A stretch of DNA of 64,000 nucleotides from an uncultured Oscillospiraceae bacterium (lineage in GTDB: Bacteria > Bacillota > Clostridia > Christensenellales > CAG-138), in contig CAZCAV010000004.1 of assembly GCA_964496795.1 (NCBI GenBank), forward strand, positions 4,660 through 68,659. The letters are read 5' to 3'. Shown here in pieces: positions 53,853 through 60,808 of this stretch (positions are counted from its first letter, which is position 1; every line of letters begins with the position of its first letter). The notes below the pieces were generated by a model. It was not told the DNA's origin, did not search any database, and saw nothing but the letters and a program-made list of their open reading frames with translations. Position numbers and translations under genes: made by a program.

Positions 53853-55043
53853 TCACACTGCCCCTCTGATTCTCAATATCTCCCGATAGGCCTGTCGGGC
53901 TACGCCTAATTCTTCATTGGCCGCAACGATTGATACAACAACTTTGGAAGTATCCGTCGAAATAACGCCCTCTCTCAGAGAACAGTTTTTGTCCTGGCTG
54001 ATAGCGACGTCGAGAAAGCTGAGCCTGCTGCATACCATTTCTCTGATTTCTGCGGAATTTTCGCCAATTCCTCCTGTGAACACCAATTGATCTAATCCTC
54101 CAAGCTCCACATAAAAGGCGCCGATATATCGCAGAACATCTGTTACAAAAACATCTACCGCCAGCTTGGCAAGATCGTTGCCCGACTGCGCCTCCCGCAT
54201 GACTTCCCGCAGATCGTTGGATACCTGTGACAAGCCCTTCAGACCTCCGTTTTGAGAGAGGCCATCCGTAATTTCATTCAGGGGCATGCCTTCGTTCAGC
54301 AGGAACGGGACGATATACGGATCCACCGTCCCGCAACGATTTGCGTGCATAACACCGGTCTGCAGGGAAAAGCCAAAGCTGCTGTCTGTGCTTTTTCCAT
54401 CTCTGATAGCGCAAACGGAGCAGCTTCCCCCAAGATGGCAGGAGATAATGCGATCGGATTTCCCGTATTCCCGGGCCTTCGATGCAACATAACTGTGTGA
54501 AGCGCCATGATACCCCATCTTTTCTATCCCATATTTCTTATACCATGTATACGGGATGGAGTACATCCGCCGTTCCTGGGGAATGGTCTTGTGAAAGGCG
54601 GTTTCAAACACGCCCACCATAGGCACGCTCCGGATAATTTCCTGGAACTGGGAAATGGCTTCGATATATGCCGCATTGTGAACCGGCGCAATGAACAAAT
54701 ACTCCCGCATGCCATTTATTACTTCATCCGTTAGTAAATGAACGCCAGTATATCCTTTCGAAAGAACTGACTTAAAGCCAATGGCTTCGATTGCCTGAAC
54801 GGATATTTTTGCGGATTCAGCCAATTCGTTCAAAAACAGTCTGATGCCGCTGGAATAATCTGGTATGCACAAGCCATCCCGATACACATGGTTGCCAAAG
54901 ACGGTATCATGATAATTCAAAATGGCCGAATCCGTGCTGCCAACCCGTTCGATTTTCACATCGCTAAGCACCGTTTCTGACGGCATGCTGTAAAGCTTAA
55001 ACTTCAGCGAAGTACTGCCAACGTTACAAATCAGCAAGTTCAT
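53853..55043 (-). CDS. Acetate/propionate/butyrate-kinase-family protein (divergent paralogue)
   Basis: The start is ATG 55043 ([15 protein letters not shown]), preceded by GAGGGAG. The product has HLGGSCSV and GGIGENS. The usual HRVVHGG region is divergent (FKSVLSKG). Confidence 0.75.
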
Positions 55044-55097
55044 ATTCGACGTCTCCCTCTCCAGTTCGTTATCTGTCATCGTGTTATCCGGACCTGC

Positions 55098-55307
55098 TCA
55101 CCGCTCTCGGGTGATGCCAAGTCCATCCATGGACGTCAGAATGTTCTGGATATGGAGCTTGGTCTGCAGCTGCCGCACATTGATTTTCTCGATATCAGTC
55201 GACAGGGAAAAGGCTGTGCCCGCAGCTTCTCCGCTTACTGCGCAGACAGGAATCGCCCGCGTGACATTCCACATATCATCCGATGCGCTGATACATCGTC
55301 CTGCTAT
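55098..55307 (-). pseudogene. C-terminal remnant (~70 aa) of an FAD-dependent oxidoreductase (FAD_oxidored family)
   Basis: The remnant reads ..[45 protein letters not shown].., the typical C-terminus of roughly 430-460-aa enzymes. There is no upstream coding continuation. Confidence 0.6.
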
Positions 55308-56204
55308 GTGCGGGCGTTGACCGTTGTGCTTCCGTCTGGTGAAATCGTTCATTTGGGCGGAAAGGTTGTGAAAAACAGCACAGGCTATTCTCTTAAGGAT
55401 TTAATCATTGGTTCTGAAGGAACGCTGGGTATCATTACGGAAGCTGTATTAAAGCTGATCCCGCTTCCCCGGATCGCGATATCATTGCTGATTCCTTTTG
55501 CAACCATTTCTCAAGCAATAGAATGCGTGCCCAAATTGATTAAGAGCCATGTTGCCTTGACCGCTGTCGAATTCATGGAGCGCTCAACGATTCTGTTCAG
55601 CGAAGAATACCTTGGCAAGCGATTCCCGGGCACCAAAGACCCCGCTTACCTTTTGCTGACTGTTGACGGTGACAGCTTGCAGATGGTGAATGAAGGTCTG
55701 GATCATCTGGCGGACATCTGCCTGACATGCGGCGCAACAGACGTTCTCATTGTCGACACCGTTGAAAGAAAAGAATCCGTCTGGTCAGCACGCGGCGCTT
55801 TTCTGGAGGCCATCAAGGCCTCCACCACCGAAATCGACGAGTGTGATGTAGTCGTCCCTCGAAACAAAATAGCCGATTTCGTCAATTACACTCAAGCAGT
55901 TGCCGGTCAGTTCAAGGTGCGAATTCATACTTTTGGGCATGCAGGGGACGGAAATCTTCACATATACATATGCCGTGATCATTTATCCAAGAAGGAATGG
56001 ACAGCCATACGAGATGGCGTGTTCAAGCTGCTGTATGCCGAAACATGCCGGATTAAGGGGCTCGTATCCGGTGAACATGGAATTGGATATGCCAAAAAAG
56101 AGTATTTACTGGATTGCTGCGGGGCCGTACAGGTACAGCTCATGAGAGGGATCAAGGCTGCTTTTGATCCAAATTGTATCCTTAATCCGGAAAAAATAAT
56201 GTAA
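55305..56204 (+). pseudogene. C-terminal two-thirds of a GlcD-like FAD-linked oxidase; the FAD-binding N-domain is missing
   Basis: From [46 protein letters not shown] onward it is colinear with residues ~170-466 of the 44050..45450 product. Upstream of ~55305 the frame is merely antisense to the other remnant. Confidence 0.7.
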
Positions 56205-56262
56205 TATGCGGCTGACGCCAGCACGTTACATGTGCAATTTGTATATCATATAAAATTTTTTA

Positions 56263-56291
56263 TTGACAAGCGGATGCGTGCGCGCTATAAT
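56263..56291 (+). promoter_or_regulatory. Perfect consensus sigma-A promoter
   Basis: The elements are TTGACA (56263-56268), a 17-nt spacer and TATAAT (56286-56291). An A/T-rich tract, atataaaattttttat, lies immediately upstream. Confidence 0.75.
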
Positions 56292-56329
56292 GCCACACAT
56301 GCAACAGATAAGGAAAGGAGATAGCAGCC

Positions 56330-56488
56330 ATGATACGCAGTCATTGTAAAGCCCTTCGCGCCGTGGCGGCTGTTTCCGCTTTCGCCTTTACCGGTCTGGC
56401 TCGATTTTTTGCGGGCCTGTTTTGCTATTACCGCTATTATTGCGGCATATGTGCATCCGACCGGTTAGGCTGTCCGTTTATGGCATAG
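56330..56488 (+). CDS. 52-codon leader/small ORF rich in Cys and Tyr
   Basis: AAGGAAAGGAG lies 9 nt upstream of ATG 56330. The product is MIRSHCKALRAVAAVSAFAFTGLARFFAGLFCYYRYYCGICASDRLGCPFMA*. The ORF is below the track length cutoff. Confidence 0.45.
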   Translation: MIRSHCKALRAVAAVSAFAFTGLARFFAGLFCYYRYYCGICASDRLGCPFMA

Positions 56489-56515
56489 CGCGCGGCGCTG
56501 TTTCTTCGTGATTAC

Positions 56516-56551
56516 GGCAGTTCCGATTGGTCGGAACTGCCTTTTATTTTT
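56516..56551 (+). terminator. Intrinsic terminator/attenuator upstream of the ABC operon
   Basis: The perfect 11-bp stem ggcagttccga/tcggaactgcc has a ttgg loop and is followed by ttttattttt. It ends 35 nt before the SBP start. Confidence 0.8.
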
Positions 56552-56586
56552 CCGGAAAGACAATAACAATGCTAAGGAGAAAAACA

Positions 56587-57627
56587 ATGAAAAGACTCGT
56601 ATGTATGATTCTGGCGCTCGTCATGATGGGCGCGCTCCTCGGCTGCGCAGGCGCCTCCGCGCCCGCCGAAGCCACCGCTGCTTCCACGCCCGCCGAAGCA
56701 GCGGAGCCCGCTGAAACAGCCGCGGCCGAAGAGTCCGCCGCAGAAACCAAGGTATATGTCGTCGGCATTTTGCAGCAGCTTGAGCATCAGGCGCTGGACG
56801 CCGCCACGGAGGGCTTCAAGGCCGCGCTGATCGACCTGCTGGGCGAGGACGGCGTAGAATTCGATTATCAAAACGCACAGAACGATCCCACCAACTGCGC
56901 CACGATCGCCACCAAGTTCGTCAATGAGGGCGTCGATCTCATCATGGCGAACGCCACCACCGCCCTGCAGGCCGCGGCGGCCGCAACGGGCGATATCCCG
57001 ATCGTCGGCACCTCCATTACGGACTATGTTTCCGCGGGCGTTATCGATTCCAACGACGCGCCCGGCCGCAACGTGACAGGCGCTTCGGACCTTGCGCCCA
57101 TCGGTGAGCAGGTCGATCTGCTGGCGGCTCTCTGCCCCGGCGCCAAGACCGTGGGCATCGTCTACTGCTCGGCGGAGGCCAACTCCGTATTTCAGGCCGA
57201 GGCTGCTCAGACCGCGCTGGAAGCCCTGGGCATGAGCGTAAACATCTATACCGTATCCGATTCCAACGACATTCAGGCGGTCGTTACCAAGGCCGTGTCC
57301 GAGGTGGACGCCATCTATATCCCCACCGACAACACCATGGCGGACAACATGGAGATCGTCAAGAACCTGACCGTTCCCGCCAAGCTTCCCGTGATCGCGG
57401 GCGAGGAGAACATGTGCGCGGCAGGCGGACTGGCGACGCTGTCCATCAGCTACTACTCCATGGGCTACTCCGCAGGCCAAATGGCCTATGAAATACTCGT
57501 AAACGGCGCGGATCCCGCGACAATGCCCATCCGCTATGCCGAGGAGGTCACGCTGAAGTACAACAGCGAGATCGCCGCGCTCATCGGCTGGACGATTCCA
57601 GAGGACATGGTCGCCATAGGCGAATAA
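56587..57627 (+). CDS. ABC transporter substrate-binding lipoprotein (ABC_sub_bind / TrpX-like family)
   Basis: The start is ATG 56587, after AAGGAGA. The product has the signal MKRLVCMILALVMMGALLGC and an Ala/Glu-rich linker. Confidence 0.75.
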   Translation: MKRLVCMILALVMMGALLGCAGASAPAEATAASTPAEAAEPAETAAAEESAAETKVYVVGILQQLEHQALDAATEGFKAALIDLLGEDGVEFDYQNAQNDPTNCATIATKFVNEGVDLIMANATTALQAAAAATGDIPIVGTSITDYVSAGVIDSNDAPGRNVTGASDLAPIGEQVDLLAALCPGAKTVGIVYCSAEANSVFQAEAAQTALEALGMSVNIYTVSDSNDIQAVVTKAVSEVDAIYIPTDNTMADNMEIVKNLTVPAKLPVIAGEENMCAAGGLATLSISYYSMGYSAGQMAYEILVNGADPATMPIRYAEEVTLKYNSEIAALIGWTIPEDMVAIGE

Positions 57628-57649
57628 CACAAACGGGAGAAACGCAACG

Positions 57650-58555
57650 ATGAATCTTACCGCGCTTATCGCCGCCCTGCCGGGTTCGGTCGCTCAGGGT
57701 CTGATCTGGGGCGTCATGGCCATCGGCGTATACATCACCTACAAGGTGCTGGACTACGCCGACCTGACGGTGGACGGCAGCCTTGCCACCGGCGGCGCCG
57801 TCGCCGTGATGCTGATGCTTGGCGGCATGCCGCCGTATGCGGCGCTGCTGGCAGCCATGCTTGCGGGCATGGCGGCCGGACTGGCGACAGGGCTGCTGCA
57901 CACCGCGCTCGGCATCCCCTCCATACTCTCGGGCATACTGACGCAGCTTGCGCTCTACTCGATCAATATGCGCATCATGGGCAAGTCGAATCAGGCCGTG
58001 AGCGTGGATAAGCTCAAGCTGATCGTGAGCATGCGCTATGTCCCAAGAACGATACTGGTGACCGCCATATTCATCGTTGCGTTGATTGCTCTGCTGTACT
58101 GGTTTTTCGGAACCGAACGAGGCTGCTCCATCCGCGCTACCGGCTGCAATCCGGGCATGGCGCGCGCGCAGGGCATAAACACCTCCTTGAACAAGGTGAT
58201 CGCGTTGGTGATCTCAAACGGACTCGTCGCGCTTTCGGGCGCGCTGTACGCCCAATATCAGGGCAGCGCGGACGTGAAAATGGGTCAGGGCGCGATCGTC
58301 ATCGGCCTTGCGGCGGTCATCATCGGAGAGGTGCTCTTTGGCAGGCGGGCAAAGAATTTTGCGCTCAAGCTGTTAAGCGCGGTAGCGGGCGCGATCGTGT
58401 ATTTCATCGTGATCGCCCTGGTCCTGCAGCTCGGTCTGAGCACGACCGACCTGAAGCTGTTCTCCGCCTGCACCGTCGCCGTGTTCCTCGCGATCCCCTA
58501 TCTTGGCCGCACATATGGCCATAAGACGCAGAAAGGACGTAACGCGCATGCTTAA
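57650..58555 (+). CDS. ABC transporter permease
   Basis: The 301-aa product is polytopic. Confidence 0.85.
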   Translation: MNLTALIAALPGSVAQGLIWGVMAIGVYITYKVLDYADLTVDGSLATGGAVAVMLMLGGMPPYAALLAAMLAGMAAGLATGLLHTALGIPSILSGILTQLALYSINMRIMGKSNQAVSVDKLKLIVSMRYVPRTILVTAIFIVALIALLYWFFGTERGCSIRATGCNPGMARAQGINTSLNKVIALVISNGLVALSGALYAQYQGSADVKMGQGAIVIGLAAVIIGEVLFGRRAKNFALKLLSAVAGAIVYFIVIALVLQLGLSTTDLKLFSACTVAVFLAIPYLGRTYGHKTQKGRNAHA

Positions 58556-59342
58556 GCTCGATCATATCTGTAAGACCTTCAACGCCGGAACCGTGAACGA
58601 GAAGGTCGCTCTGAACGATTTCTCGCTCACGCTCAGGGAGGGCGAGTTTGTCACCGTGATAGGCGGCAACGGCGCCGGAAAGTCCACCATGCTCAACGCG
58701 GTGGCCGGCGTCTGGCCGCTGGATTCCGGCAGCGTCGTGATCGACGGAGCGGACGTTACCCGCCTTTCGGAATACCGGCGGGCCGCATACCTTGGCCGCG
58801 TCTTTCAGGATCCCATGACCGGCACGGCCGCCTCCATGGGCATCGACGAAAACCTTGCGCTCGCCTACCGGCGGGGACGAAACCGCGGCCTTCGCTGGGG
58901 CATCTCCGGCAGGGAGCGCGCGATGTATCGCGATCTCCTTGCATCTCTGGAGCTCGGCCTCGAGGATCGGCTTTCCACCAAGGTCGGGCTGCTCTCCGGC
59001 GGCCAGAGGCAGGCGCTGACGCTGCTGATGGCGACGCTGCAAAAGCCCAAGCTCCTGCTGCTCGACGAGCATACCGCAGCGCTCGATCCGAAAACGGCGG
59101 GCAAGGTGCTGACGCTCTCGGATCAGATCATCGCCAGAAATAAGCTCACGGCCATGATGGTGACCCATAATATGCGCGACGCCATCGCCTACGGCAGCCG
59201 GCTCATCATGATGTACGAGGGCGGAATAGCGCTGGACATTTCGGGCGAGGCCAAAAAGCGCCTGACGGTGGAGGGCCTGCTCTGGCAGTTTGAAAAGGCG
59301 AGCGGCACGCAGTTTGCCAACGACCGCGCCCTGCTTGCCTGA
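58548..59342 (+). CDS. ABC transporter ATP-binding protein
   Basis: The start is ATG 58548 (MLKLDHICKTF), which overlaps the permease stop by 8 nt. The product has Walker A GGNGAGKST and the signature LSGGQRQA. Confidence 0.9.
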   Translation: MLKLDHICKTFNAGTVNEKVALNDFSLTLREGEFVTVIGGNGAGKSTMLNAVAGVWPLDSGSVVIDGADVTRLSEYRRAAYLGRVFQDPMTGTAASMGIDENLALAYRRGRNRGLRWGISGRERAMYRDLLASLELGLEDRLSTKVGLLSGGQRQALTLLMATLQKPKLLLLDEHTAALDPKTAGKVLTLSDQIIARNKLTAMMVTHNMRDAIAYGSRLIMMYEGGIALDISGEAKKRLTVEGLLWQFEKASGTQFANDRALLA

Positions 59343-59379
59343 GCGCGCGGAACCGTCAAAAGCTGGTTTTAGTGAATAA

Positions 59380-59419
59380 GGGCGCAAGCAGGACGTGATC
59401 GTCCCGTTTGCGCCCCTTT
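59380..59419 (+). terminator. Possible terminator after the ABC operon
   Basis: The long hairpin is gggcgcaa..ggacg-tgat-cgtcc..ttgcgccc. The trailing U-tract is weak (cttt). Confidence 0.4.
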
Positions 59420-59479
59420 CGCGCTTATGATATACTGACTACTGCATATCCGGACATATTTTTGGGGAGGTATCGTTAT

Positions 59480-60115
59480 ATGCTGTTTGGAGACCCGTCG
59501 GGCGCGTCCCAGGCGGACGCCGCCATTGCCGCCGTTCGAGATCCCAGCCGTTTCAACTGGACCACCATTTTCTTTCTGGCCGTCGTCGTCATACTGTATA
59601 TCGACGAGTATAAAAAAGGAAACTATAAGGCCATCGCGGCCGCGCTCGCGCTGTACAGCGTGCACTGGCTGTATGAGATCGCAAACGCTGTGATCTGCCA
59701 TTTTACAGGCTACGCGCTCTGGACCGTTTCGCCGGAAAGCACATCGTTCATACTGCTCATCGGCGTCAGCGTGGAGCTTTCGTTCATGTTCTCGATCGCC
59801 GGCTTTACCAGTAAGCTACTGCCCAAGGACAAGGACATGAAGATCCTCGGCGTCAACAATCGCATCGTATTTGCCATTGGCTCCGCGCTGCTGTTCTCTC
59901 TGATCGAGATCTTCCTCGCCTGGACGCCCGCGTTCATATGGGTCTATAAGTGGTGGGGCGCGATCCCCGTATTCATCACGACCTATATCCCCTTCTTCCT
60001 GGCCAGCTACCTGATCTATGACAAGCCGCCCAAAACGCAGAAACGGTTTATCATTACGCTGTGCGCCGTCAATATCGTGCTGCTTGCCGTTCTCATTCCC
60101 CTCGGGATCATCTAG
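59480..60115 (+). CDS. Hypothetical polytopic membrane protein
   Basis: The start is ATG 59480, after GGGGAGG. The extended -10 TGATATACT is at 59428-59436. The product has about 6 hydrophobic segments. I do not recognise a family. Confidence 0.6.
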   Translation: MLFGDPSGASQADAAIAAVRDPSRFNWTTIFFLAVVVILYIDEYKKGNYKAIAAALALYSVHWLYEIANAVICHFTGYALWTVSPESTSFILLIGVSVELSFMFSIAGFTSKLLPKDKDMKILGVNNRIVFAIGSALLFSLIEIFLAWTPAFIWVYKWWGAIPVFITTYIPFFLASYLIYDKPPKTQKRFIITLCAVNIVLLAVLIPLGII

Positions 60116-60127
60116 GCGGCGACCGGC

Positions 60128-60808
60128 TTATTCCGTTCGTTTTTCCGGATCCGCGATCCTGTCCGCATACTGCGGATAGTCCTTGATAAACCGCCGTATG
60201 ACCCCATGCTTCTTCCAGTAGTGCATCGGGTAGACGCGCTTTGCGCGGGCAGCGGCAAGGAAATACGCCAGCCCGTCCGCATAATGCGCCTCCAGGCGCG
60301 GGTCCAGCGGCACGAAAGCGATATCGATCTCCCGCCCCCTGAGCTTATCGATCTCATGGCGGTAGTTGCCGCGCATCTGGCGGTTTTCTTCGTCGCTTTC
60401 GCCCTCCCAGCACCAGTCGTTGAGGTCGCCCGCGTGATAGATCACGCCCTCGCTGCATGTAAGCAGAAAGGCTACGCCGCTGTCGGTGGACCGGAGCGTT
60501 TCGAGCGTTTCGCCGCCGCTGAGCGTGTAGCTTTTTCCTGCGCGCACGGGCAGGACCTCAACGTTCTTCGGGTATTTCTTTTCAGGGATATCGCAGGCGA
60601 GCACGGCGGATATGCCGCGCATGCCCATCGTCTCAAGCAGTCCGAACTGAGCGGGATTGTAGTGATCCGCATGCGCATGGCTGCTAAACACGACGATGGG
60701 CTTGTTGGCGTCAAGCGGCGGGATATCTCCCTTGTAATAATCGAACAGATAGTAGCTCTGCTCCGTTTCGAGCAGGAATCCGCTATGCTGGATATAGCGT
60801 ACACGCAT
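60128..60808 (-). CDS. MBL-fold metallo-hydrolase
   Basis: The start is ATG 60808 (MRVRYIQHSGFLLE). The product has the SSHAHADH motif. Confidence 0.75.
   Translation of the reverse strand: MRVRYIQHSGFLLETEQSYYLFDYYKGDIPPLDANKPIVVFSSHAHADHYNPAQFGLLETMGMRGISAVLACDIPEKKYPKNVEVLPVRAGKSYTLSGGETLETLRSTDSGVAFLLTCSEGVIYHAGDLNDWCWEGESDEENRQMRGNYRHEIDKLRGREIDIAFVPLDPRLEAHYADGLAYFLAAARAKRVYPMHYWKKHGVIRRFIKDYPQYADRIADPEKRTE

Follow-up and report, generated by a model that had tools for sequence, protein, structure and literature searches.

What is a 52-codon open reading frame (ORF) doing between a consensus promoter and an intrinsic terminator, just ahead of the genes of an ATP-binding cassette (ABC) importer, in an uncultured Oscillospiraceae bacterium? 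The locus lies on contig CAZCAV010000004.1, in a 64,000-nt stretch that was analyzed as a whole and is referred to here as the window; coordinates are positions within the window, and the leader-transporter unit is on the + strand. Amino acid-sensing leader peptides are textbook regulators in the Proteobacteria and are thought to be rare in the Firmicutes, where T-boxes serve. The answer that we favor, with a probability of roughly 0.8, is that the ORF belongs to a transcription attenuator of the ribosome-mediated (leader-peptide) type, which senses the supply of charged tRNA-Tyr and tRNA-Phe and gates a tyrosine-type ABC importer.

The elements of such a leader are all present in compact form. 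The sigma-70 promoter TTGACA-17-TATAAT (56263..56291) matches the consensus at 12 of 12 positions, the hexamers TTGACA (56263-56268) and TATAAT (56286-56291) being set 17 nt apart; it is the sole 12/12 match within 55000-60500, and an A/T-rich tract lies 5' of it. Transcription of the leader probably starts near 56298. The Shine-Dalgarno sequence AAAGGAG (56314..56320) is separated by 9 nt from the ATG (56330) of the leader ORF (56330..56488), which encodes MIRSHCKALRAVAAVSAFAFTGLARFFAGLFCYYRYYCGICASDRLGCPFMA* and ends with TAG at 56486-88. The intrinsic terminator (56516..56551), apparent from both fold and sequence, consists of an 11-bp stem (56516-56526/56531-56541, with seven G-C pairs among the 11), a UUGG loop and a U-tract at 56542-56551, the stem being followed by TTTTATTTTT; its folding energy is -19 kcal/mol. 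From the T-run to the ATG of the binding-protein gene (56587) is 35 nt. The terminator thus follows the leader ORF and precedes the first structural gene without an intervening promoter, no promoter-like site being seen between 56292 and 56586. The original prediction, made from the bare sequence, had described the promoter, the ribosome-binding site, the 52-codon ORF, a YYRYY run with flanking Cys codons, the 11-bp terminator and the 35-nt spacing, and each of these was found in place. It had also seen no T-box or riboswitch signature, and a Rfam scan of 54000-58000 at E<=1 agrees, giving no match to T-box RF00230, to riboswitches, to the Phe, Trp, His, Leu and Thr leader models or to any other family except one CRISPR-DR match, which is a chance match outside the leader region.

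The terminator competes with an alternative structure that depends on where the ribosome is. The RNA 3' of the ribosome was folded for every codon position that the ribosome can take. In the untranslated leader the probability of the terminator is 0.96; with the A-site at codons 17-38 it is 0.00, from about codon 40 onward it is >=0.9, and at the stop codon it is 0.98, a pattern that is stable over footprint offsets of 10-18 nt. The minimum free energy (MFE) structure of the stalled state has -40.0 kcal/mol, compared with -35.6 kcal/mol for the best fold that contains the terminator. In 200 dinucleotide shuffles of the spacer the terminator probability never fell below 0.1 (0/200; p 0.005 for the window), and when the whole terminator sequence was allowed to pair upstream, the gain was -23.7 kcal/mol in the window and -8.6 ± 3.4 kcal/mol in the shuffles. 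A mutually exclusive antiterminator, as the original prediction implied, was therefore found in the folding model of the window, and its formation depends on ribosome position as expected.

The stalled-state structure is a single long interrupted hairpin that pairs 56453-56491 with 56495-56540. Its 5' strand, which we call segment 2 (56453..56491), takes in the final 12 codons of the ORF together with the stop codon; its 3' strand in the stalled-ribosome MFE (56495..56540) includes the whole terminator sequence; the apex is a small G-C hairpin, 56485-56501, that spans the stop codon. Farther upstream, segment 1 (ACCGGUC, 56390..56396) is the arm of an anti-antiterminator: in the untranslated MFE it pairs with 56459-56465, and in the folding model this helix makes termination the default when there is no translation. 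A third element, the hairpin GGCUCG-AUUUUUUG-CGGGCC (56398..56417), recognized by its pairing and the conservation of its motif, carries Phe codons in its loop. The arrangement of promoter, ORF and terminator is more than a product of chance, since all three are kept in relatives and the antiterminator beats 200 of 200 dinucleotide shuffles.

Relatives of the leader were sought at loci fetched via the binding protein, 80 of them in species genomes and 80 in metagenomes. At the DNA level the leader can be recognized at three of the genome loci (L004, and L005, which equals L002), where the Shine-Dalgarno sequence, ORF and terminator are conserved, both promoter hexamers are unchanged and indels keep the reading frame; TTGACA-17-TATAAT is also found at loci L072, L068 and L171. 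A scan upstream of all loci revealed more distant leaders of the same build. Together with three from a peptide-profile search (below) there are 18 distinct leaders, each with a Shine-Dalgarno sequence, 28-56 codons rich in Phe and Tyr, a terminator and a PF04392 gene. The sequence (A)AGGAG stands 7-10 nt 5' of the leader ATG in all relatives. Terminators are present in 18/18 leaders (-14.6 to -32.6 kcal/mol), beginning 9-37 nt past the leader stop codon; for those of the locus scan the start is 14-37 nt past the stop codon and the distance from the end to the binding-protein gene 14-103 nt. A word-indexed protein search with the leader peptide matched only the window's own protein, and a profile of 11 peptides, run against 1.84 billion representative proteins, gave only nine matches, all of them rich in Phe and Tyr. 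Three of the nine were new and were found by peptide similarity alone; all three directly precede a PF04392-PF02653-ABC ATPase operon, each with a Shine-Dalgarno sequence, the hairpin and a terminator, and their upstream neighbors differ. Upstream of orthologous transporters, conservation thus extends to the ORF with its aromatic run, as the original prediction would have it, and within the window's own family the leader was found in only 3 of 240 genomes.

The codons that would be sensed lie where the folding model places the critical ribosome. The ORF has ten aromatic codons in total, and nine of them (F18, F20, F26, F27, F31, Y33, Y34, Y36 and Y37; 56381..56440) fall within codons 17-38, the interval in which a stalled ribosome abolishes the terminator (hypergeometric p=0.001). 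The cluster ends with the YYRYY run, TAT TAC CGC TAT TAT at 56426-56440, which has TGC codons on both flanks. Over 15 leaders, Phe and Tyr codons (UUY, UAY) number 122 in frame and 35 and 44 in the other frames, and each of the 15 exceeds its own shuffles (p 0-0.02); at the level of sequence, this in-frame excess is evidence for translation of the leader. That ribosomes stalling at Tyr codons would control the terminator ahead of an ABC importer, as was first proposed, is supported by the folds, the conservation and the link to the transporter. The sensing of Tyr holds to the extent that the Tyr run is part of the sensing cluster, but not as sensing of Tyr alone, as Phe codons also belong to the cluster and dominate it in some relatives.

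The same numbers bear on the idea that the leader monitors translation in general. The device could be a translation-coupled attenuator that responds to general translation capacity or coupling, or one that acts with Rho or a protein factor, the aromatic codons being a by-product of U-rich sequence. The loop and flanks of the conserved hairpin are indeed U-rich, and in the model any slowdown of the ribosome at codons 17-38 antiterminates. U-richness does not explain Tyr codons (UAY), however, nor a roughly threefold excess of Phe and Tyr codons in frame over out of frame, and this explanation further leaves aside that the regulated protein carries tyrosine-binding determinants and that orthologues use Tyr T-boxes sensing the same signal (both described below). 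We consider it improbable.

In the attenuator that we favor, RNA polymerase would start near 56298 at the consensus promoter. When Tyr or Phe is scarce, a ribosome would stall in the aromatic cluster with its front edge at most at about 56455, the long hairpin antiterminator would form and block the terminator, and transcription would read through into the binding-protein, permease and ATPase genes. When Tyr and Phe are both plentiful, the ribosome would reach the stop codon and strip the 5' strand from the antiterminator, so that the freed 3' strand could fold into the 11-bp terminator and transcription would end at 56542-56551. If the leader were not translated, 56390-96 would pair with 56459-65 as anti-antiterminator, and termination would follow by default. 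The hairpin at 56398-56417, with its Phe codons in the loop, is probably a pause site for the polymerase or a brake on the ribosome, and either would hold transcription and translation in step. Computed results are the sequence elements and their conservation, the bias in codon use, the alternative folds and the covariation; from these we infer the stalling, the polymerase pausing and the response to tyrosine.

The paired elements show signs of selection on RNA structure. Covariation was assessed in the four closest sequences, those of the window, L004, L005 and L171. Over the anti-antiterminator, the conserved hairpin and the terminator, five pairs have compensatory double changes, a count that was reached in 0/500 shuffles, with slid controls giving 0-1. 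Three of the seven anti-antiterminator pairs and two pairs of the terminator contribute to it, and two of the anti-antiterminator changes cost amino acid replacements (T->I, D->G). The outer helix of the antiterminator, 56461-68:56527-34, is paired in 32/32 cells of the four sequences, with four one-sided changes, and its slid controls are 6-53% paired. The hairpin at 56398-56417 is 100% paired in the four close sequences; its motif YYCG-N3-11-CGGGY occurs 5' of the binding-protein gene in 28 loci, and the form GGYYCG-(Phe/Tyr codons)-CGGGYC is conserved from the window's lineage to Oscillibacter. There is a small chance that the leader goes beyond classical attenuation, and that this hairpin is a device that presents the regulatory codons within a helix to be unwound by the ribosome, or binds a factor, or that the peptide has a second role in trans like peTrpL. 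Were any of these true, the leaders would form a distinct, lineage-specific class of Tyr sensor, with an origin separate from that of the leaders in Proteobacteria and Actinobacteria, and would repeatedly have swapped places with Tyr T-boxes.

A terminator behind a short ORF may also be read differently, as the device that sets a fixed ratio of expression between a highly expressed small gene and the transporter. The product would then be a functional small protein, for instance an accessory subunit at the membrane or a peptide rich in Cys, and the original prediction had offered a functional peptide with one hydrophobic segment and four C-terminal Cys as its alternative. The window's peptide does have five Cys residues and one hydrophobic stretch, the ORF is called as a protein by gene callers, the ratio of nonsynonymous to synonymous changes (pN/pS) is below 1, and leader peptides with a function in trans are known, peTrpL being the example taken here from PMC7298713. 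The relatives speak against a conserved protein. They have neither the Cys positions nor the hydrophobic segment, MQKKKNNLNSSAVFSYYRQARFAGQAYFAYYYAETFSHNLTRHGNCKE for example being free of any membrane-like stretch, and what is conserved is limited to the aromatic residues and the RNA hairpin. In the three closest leaders pN/pS is 0.46-0.59 for the leader ORF versus 0.14-0.24 for the adjacent binding protein. The compensatory changes in the RNA are made through the replacements T->I and D->G, and the Ala codon within the conserved hairpin is always GCG, a sign that selection acts on the RNA. The peptide matches no Pfam or NCBIfam family, and its profile found just those nine proteins among the 1.84 billion. 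A functional Cys-rich hydrophobic peptide is therefore not borne out, and we regard the small-protein explanation as decidedly improbable.

The best-conserved peptide stretch across distant leaders, (A/V)R(F/Y)(F)AG, could in principle have a meaning of its own. TnaC provides the precedent of a nascent peptide that responds to tryptophan, and in like manner (A/V)R(F/Y)(F)AG might be an arrest motif responding to free tyrosine in the exit tunnel, which would make the nascent peptide rather than the codons the sensor. Yet the motif coincides exactly with the RNA hairpin GGYYCG-loop-CGGGYC (56398-56417 in the window), the changes between A and V within it preserve G-C or G-U pairing, and in L140 the loop aromatic codon is replaced and the stem is kept. 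The logic would also run backward, with free Tyr inducing a Tyr importer. We hold this to be very improbable. Selection is on the RNA structure and the aromatic codons and not on a folded protein, given the poor conservation of the peptide, the pN/pS values, the identity of motif and hairpin, the GCG codon for Ala and the changes that keep pairing.

If the leader senses aromatic amino acids, what does the importer carry? The first gene encodes a substrate-binding lipoprotein of the PF04392 family (56587..57627; Pfam 7.6e-70), with the lipobox LLGC in its translation, that is predicted to bind tyrosine; it is followed by the genes for an ABC permease (PF02653; 57650..58555) and an ABC ATPase (PF00005; 58548..59342), both identified with Pfam, the start of the latter overlapping the permease stop. 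The nearest solved structure to the binding protein is that of CD0873 of Clostridioides difficile (PDB 6HNI, E=1.2e-55), which holds bound tyrosine (PMC6816091). In thermal-shift assays tyrosine alone of 20 amino acids stabilized CD0873, and its specificity has been attributed to two residues, Glu263 with a hydrogen bond to the Tyr hydroxyl and Tyr279 as the one that keeps out Trp (PMC6816091). In the alignment to 6HNI the equivalents of these residues in the window protein are E273 and Y289, and the Glu/Tyr pair is present in 147/162 homologous loci. The position at which SP1069 has a Gln that admits Trp is Tyr in the window protein, as it is in Tyr and Phe binders (PMC6816091). By the NCBIfam equivalog model NF041285, to which it scores 271 bits, below the 390-bit cut-off, the protein is not a TrpX equivalog. 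The substrate is thus likely to be tyrosine, and perhaps also phenylalanine. The Glu does not covary with the T-box specifier or with the codon content of the leader in the 4 T-box and 15 leader loci compared: Glu and Tyr are found in all four T-box loci, including the two with UUC, and in all 15 leader-bearing loci checked, and since they are invariant across both groups, a preference for Phe or Tyr is not legible from the Glu residue. The link between this transporter family and aromatic amino acids, which the original prediction had brought up, is confirmed and is sharpened to tyrosine by the similarity to CD0873 and by the Tyr T-boxes of orthologues.

Those T-boxes occupy the position that the leader has in the window. 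At four orthologous loci a T-box, and no leader, lies directly 5' of the binding-protein gene. Two have a UAC (Tyr) specifier (L047:1192-1421 and L074:2570-2798), and two have a UUC (Phe) specifier by model alignment (L040:2676-2919 and L046:2676-2918), an assignment that is uncertain, with no purine after the codon. The two kinds of regulator were not found together: among the leader-bearing loci of the genome collection scanned with Rfam, none has a T-box before the transporter, and no T-box locus has a leader. The T-box model that found nothing at the leader does match at these orthologous loci, and the window's own genome contains at least eight T-box matches elsewhere, three of them above the Rfam cut-off (for example, C18:34759-34978), so that T-box and leader-peptide regulation coexist in the organism, and the leader is a local replacement of a T-box and not the mark of an organism that lacks T-boxes.

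Several observations weigh against the attenuator as we have drawn it. The window's minimum-energy antiterminator is shifted by 4-5 nt from the register common to the four aligned sequences, a shift that is made possible by the repeat CCGACCGG, and the covariation rests on those four sequences. In 11/18 relatives, all of which have very strong terminators, the terminator is still predicted at equilibrium with a stalled ribosome. In the two closest genome relatives, L004 and L005, the terminator fold is more stable than the antiterminator by 1.5-2.4 kcal/mol (shuffle p 0.10-0.13, not significant by itself), a deficit that can be tolerated if the antiterminator is the first to form as the RNA is made. 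For these relatives a kinetic, cotranscriptional argument is needed. By a stricter measure, sequestration of the 5' arm of the terminator alone, before the 3' arm exists, is not above shuffles for most leaders. The cluster mixes Phe and Tyr codons, and CD0873 bound only Tyr in vitro (PMC6816091). Finally, an ORF of 52 codons is longer than the best-known leader peptides. In the test of pairing gain, 7/18 leaders reach p<=0.05, and Fisher's combined value is 6e-7 for sequences that are not independent. Taken over the relatives, the predicted switch is supportive of attenuation but not uniform.

The surroundings of the transporter provided a number of further observations. DAHP (3-deoxy-D-arabino-heptulosonate 7-phosphate) synthase is the first enzyme of aromatic amino acid synthesis, and its gene lies immediately 5' of the transporter, at about 100-450 nt, in L043, L060, L067, L073, L076, L078 and L079; these neighbors hint independently at a role of the transporter family in handling aromatic amino acids. 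Frames with the peptide YYY in L060, L067 and L078 were considered as leaders and rejected, as they lie in the terminator region of the upstream DAHP synthase gene and have no Shine-Dalgarno sequence. In the window, a terminator-like hairpin, GGGCGCAAGCAGGACGTGATCGTCCCGTTTGCGCCC followed by TTTC, at 59375-59420, 3' of the ATPase gene, probably ends the transporter operon. An ORF at 59408-60115 encodes a multi-pass membrane protein of 235 amino acids that has no Pfam or NCBIfam family; it was rejected as a member of the operon, as its 93% identical homologue in L004 and the transporter there are on opposite strands. The gene 5' of the promoter, at 55152-56204, encodes only the C-terminal domain of an FAD (flavin adenine dinucleotide)-linked oxidase (PF02913), and the first 50 or so residues of the listed ORF are unlike the oxidase. 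Other RNA elements were encountered at related loci: further T-boxes 3' of the transporter operon in two loci of Oscillibacter type (L059:4647-4894 and L063:6269-6517), a malK-I RNA (RF03069, 135 bits) about 2 kb 5' of the leader in the locus of the closest relative (L004:839-1022), and a ZMP/ZTP riboswitch on the minus strand at L036:2549-2630, pointing away from the transporter.

If the attenuator is accepted, it would be a clean example of amino acid-sensing leader-peptide control in a lineage of gut Clostridia that normally uses T-boxes for this job, and the Tyr T-boxes at the orthologous loci of sister lineages would form a natural experiment in the swapping of regulators for the same signal. 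A likely substrate, tyrosine and perhaps phenylalanine, could be assigned to an uncharacterized transporter of uncultured gut bacteria, and some of the short ORFs that are called hypothetical small proteins would be regulatory leaders. In the literature that we searched there was no Tyr-sensing or Tyr-rich leader peptide, none upstream of this transporter family, and no description of the conserved hairpin.

The best-known systems of comparison are the Escherichia coli leaders trpL and pheL (of pheA). They share with the window leader a short ORF led by a Shine-Dalgarno sequence, clustered cognate codons, the four-segment logic of anti-antiterminator, antiterminator and intrinsic terminator, and termination as the default when the amino acid is plentiful or the leader is untranslated. 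The window leader differs from them in having no similarity to them in sequence or to their Rfam models, in its length of 52 codons compared with 14-15, in a cluster that mixes Tyr and Phe codons, and in an antiterminator that is one long hairpin with its apex across the stop codon; it would control an importer instead of a biosynthetic operon, and its host is a member of the Clostridia. Closer in the amino acids concerned, and the one aromatic case met in the literature searched, is aroR of Corynebacterium glutamicum, the Phe-Tyr-Phe leader of aroF, which is reported to respond to Phe and not to Tyr (Neshat et al. 2014, as given in PMC11802643). On that account it too combines an aromatic-codon leader peptide, ribosome stalling and a gene of aromatic amino acid metabolism, but it is actinobacterial, precedes a DAHP synthase gene and has three aromatic codons, whereas the window leader has nine in its cluster, with four Tyr codons in five positions, and precedes the gene of a Tyr-type binding protein.

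Within the Firmicutes, His leader-peptide attenuation has been predicted in several species (PMC2965389, PMC9413887) and a Leu-rich attenuator peptide of ilv-leu has been demonstrated in Staphylococcus aureus (PMC5794164). These cases resemble ours in being classical ribosome-mediated attenuation in Firmicutes that can stand in for a T-box at a given gene, and differ from it in the amino acid, the lineage and, mostly, the control of biosynthetic genes, with no relation in sequence to the window leader. The Tyr T-boxes of L047 and L074, and the Trp T-box of Streptococcus suis trpX (PMC9382623), stand in the same position, between the promoter and a PF04392 gene, and likewise turn a tRNA-charging signal into a choice of terminator or antiterminator; unlike the leader, whose region has no T-box, they bind the uncharged tRNA directly and need no translation. 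The regulated protein has its own counterpart in CD0873, likewise the lipoprotein of an ABC importer, whose tyrosine-selecting Glu and Tyr are kept as E273 and Y289 in the window protein, for which the ligand is predicted. The mechanism of attenuation is itself classical, and what sets the window leader apart is the predicted sensing of Tyr, the predicted control of an importer and the occurrence in Clostridia.

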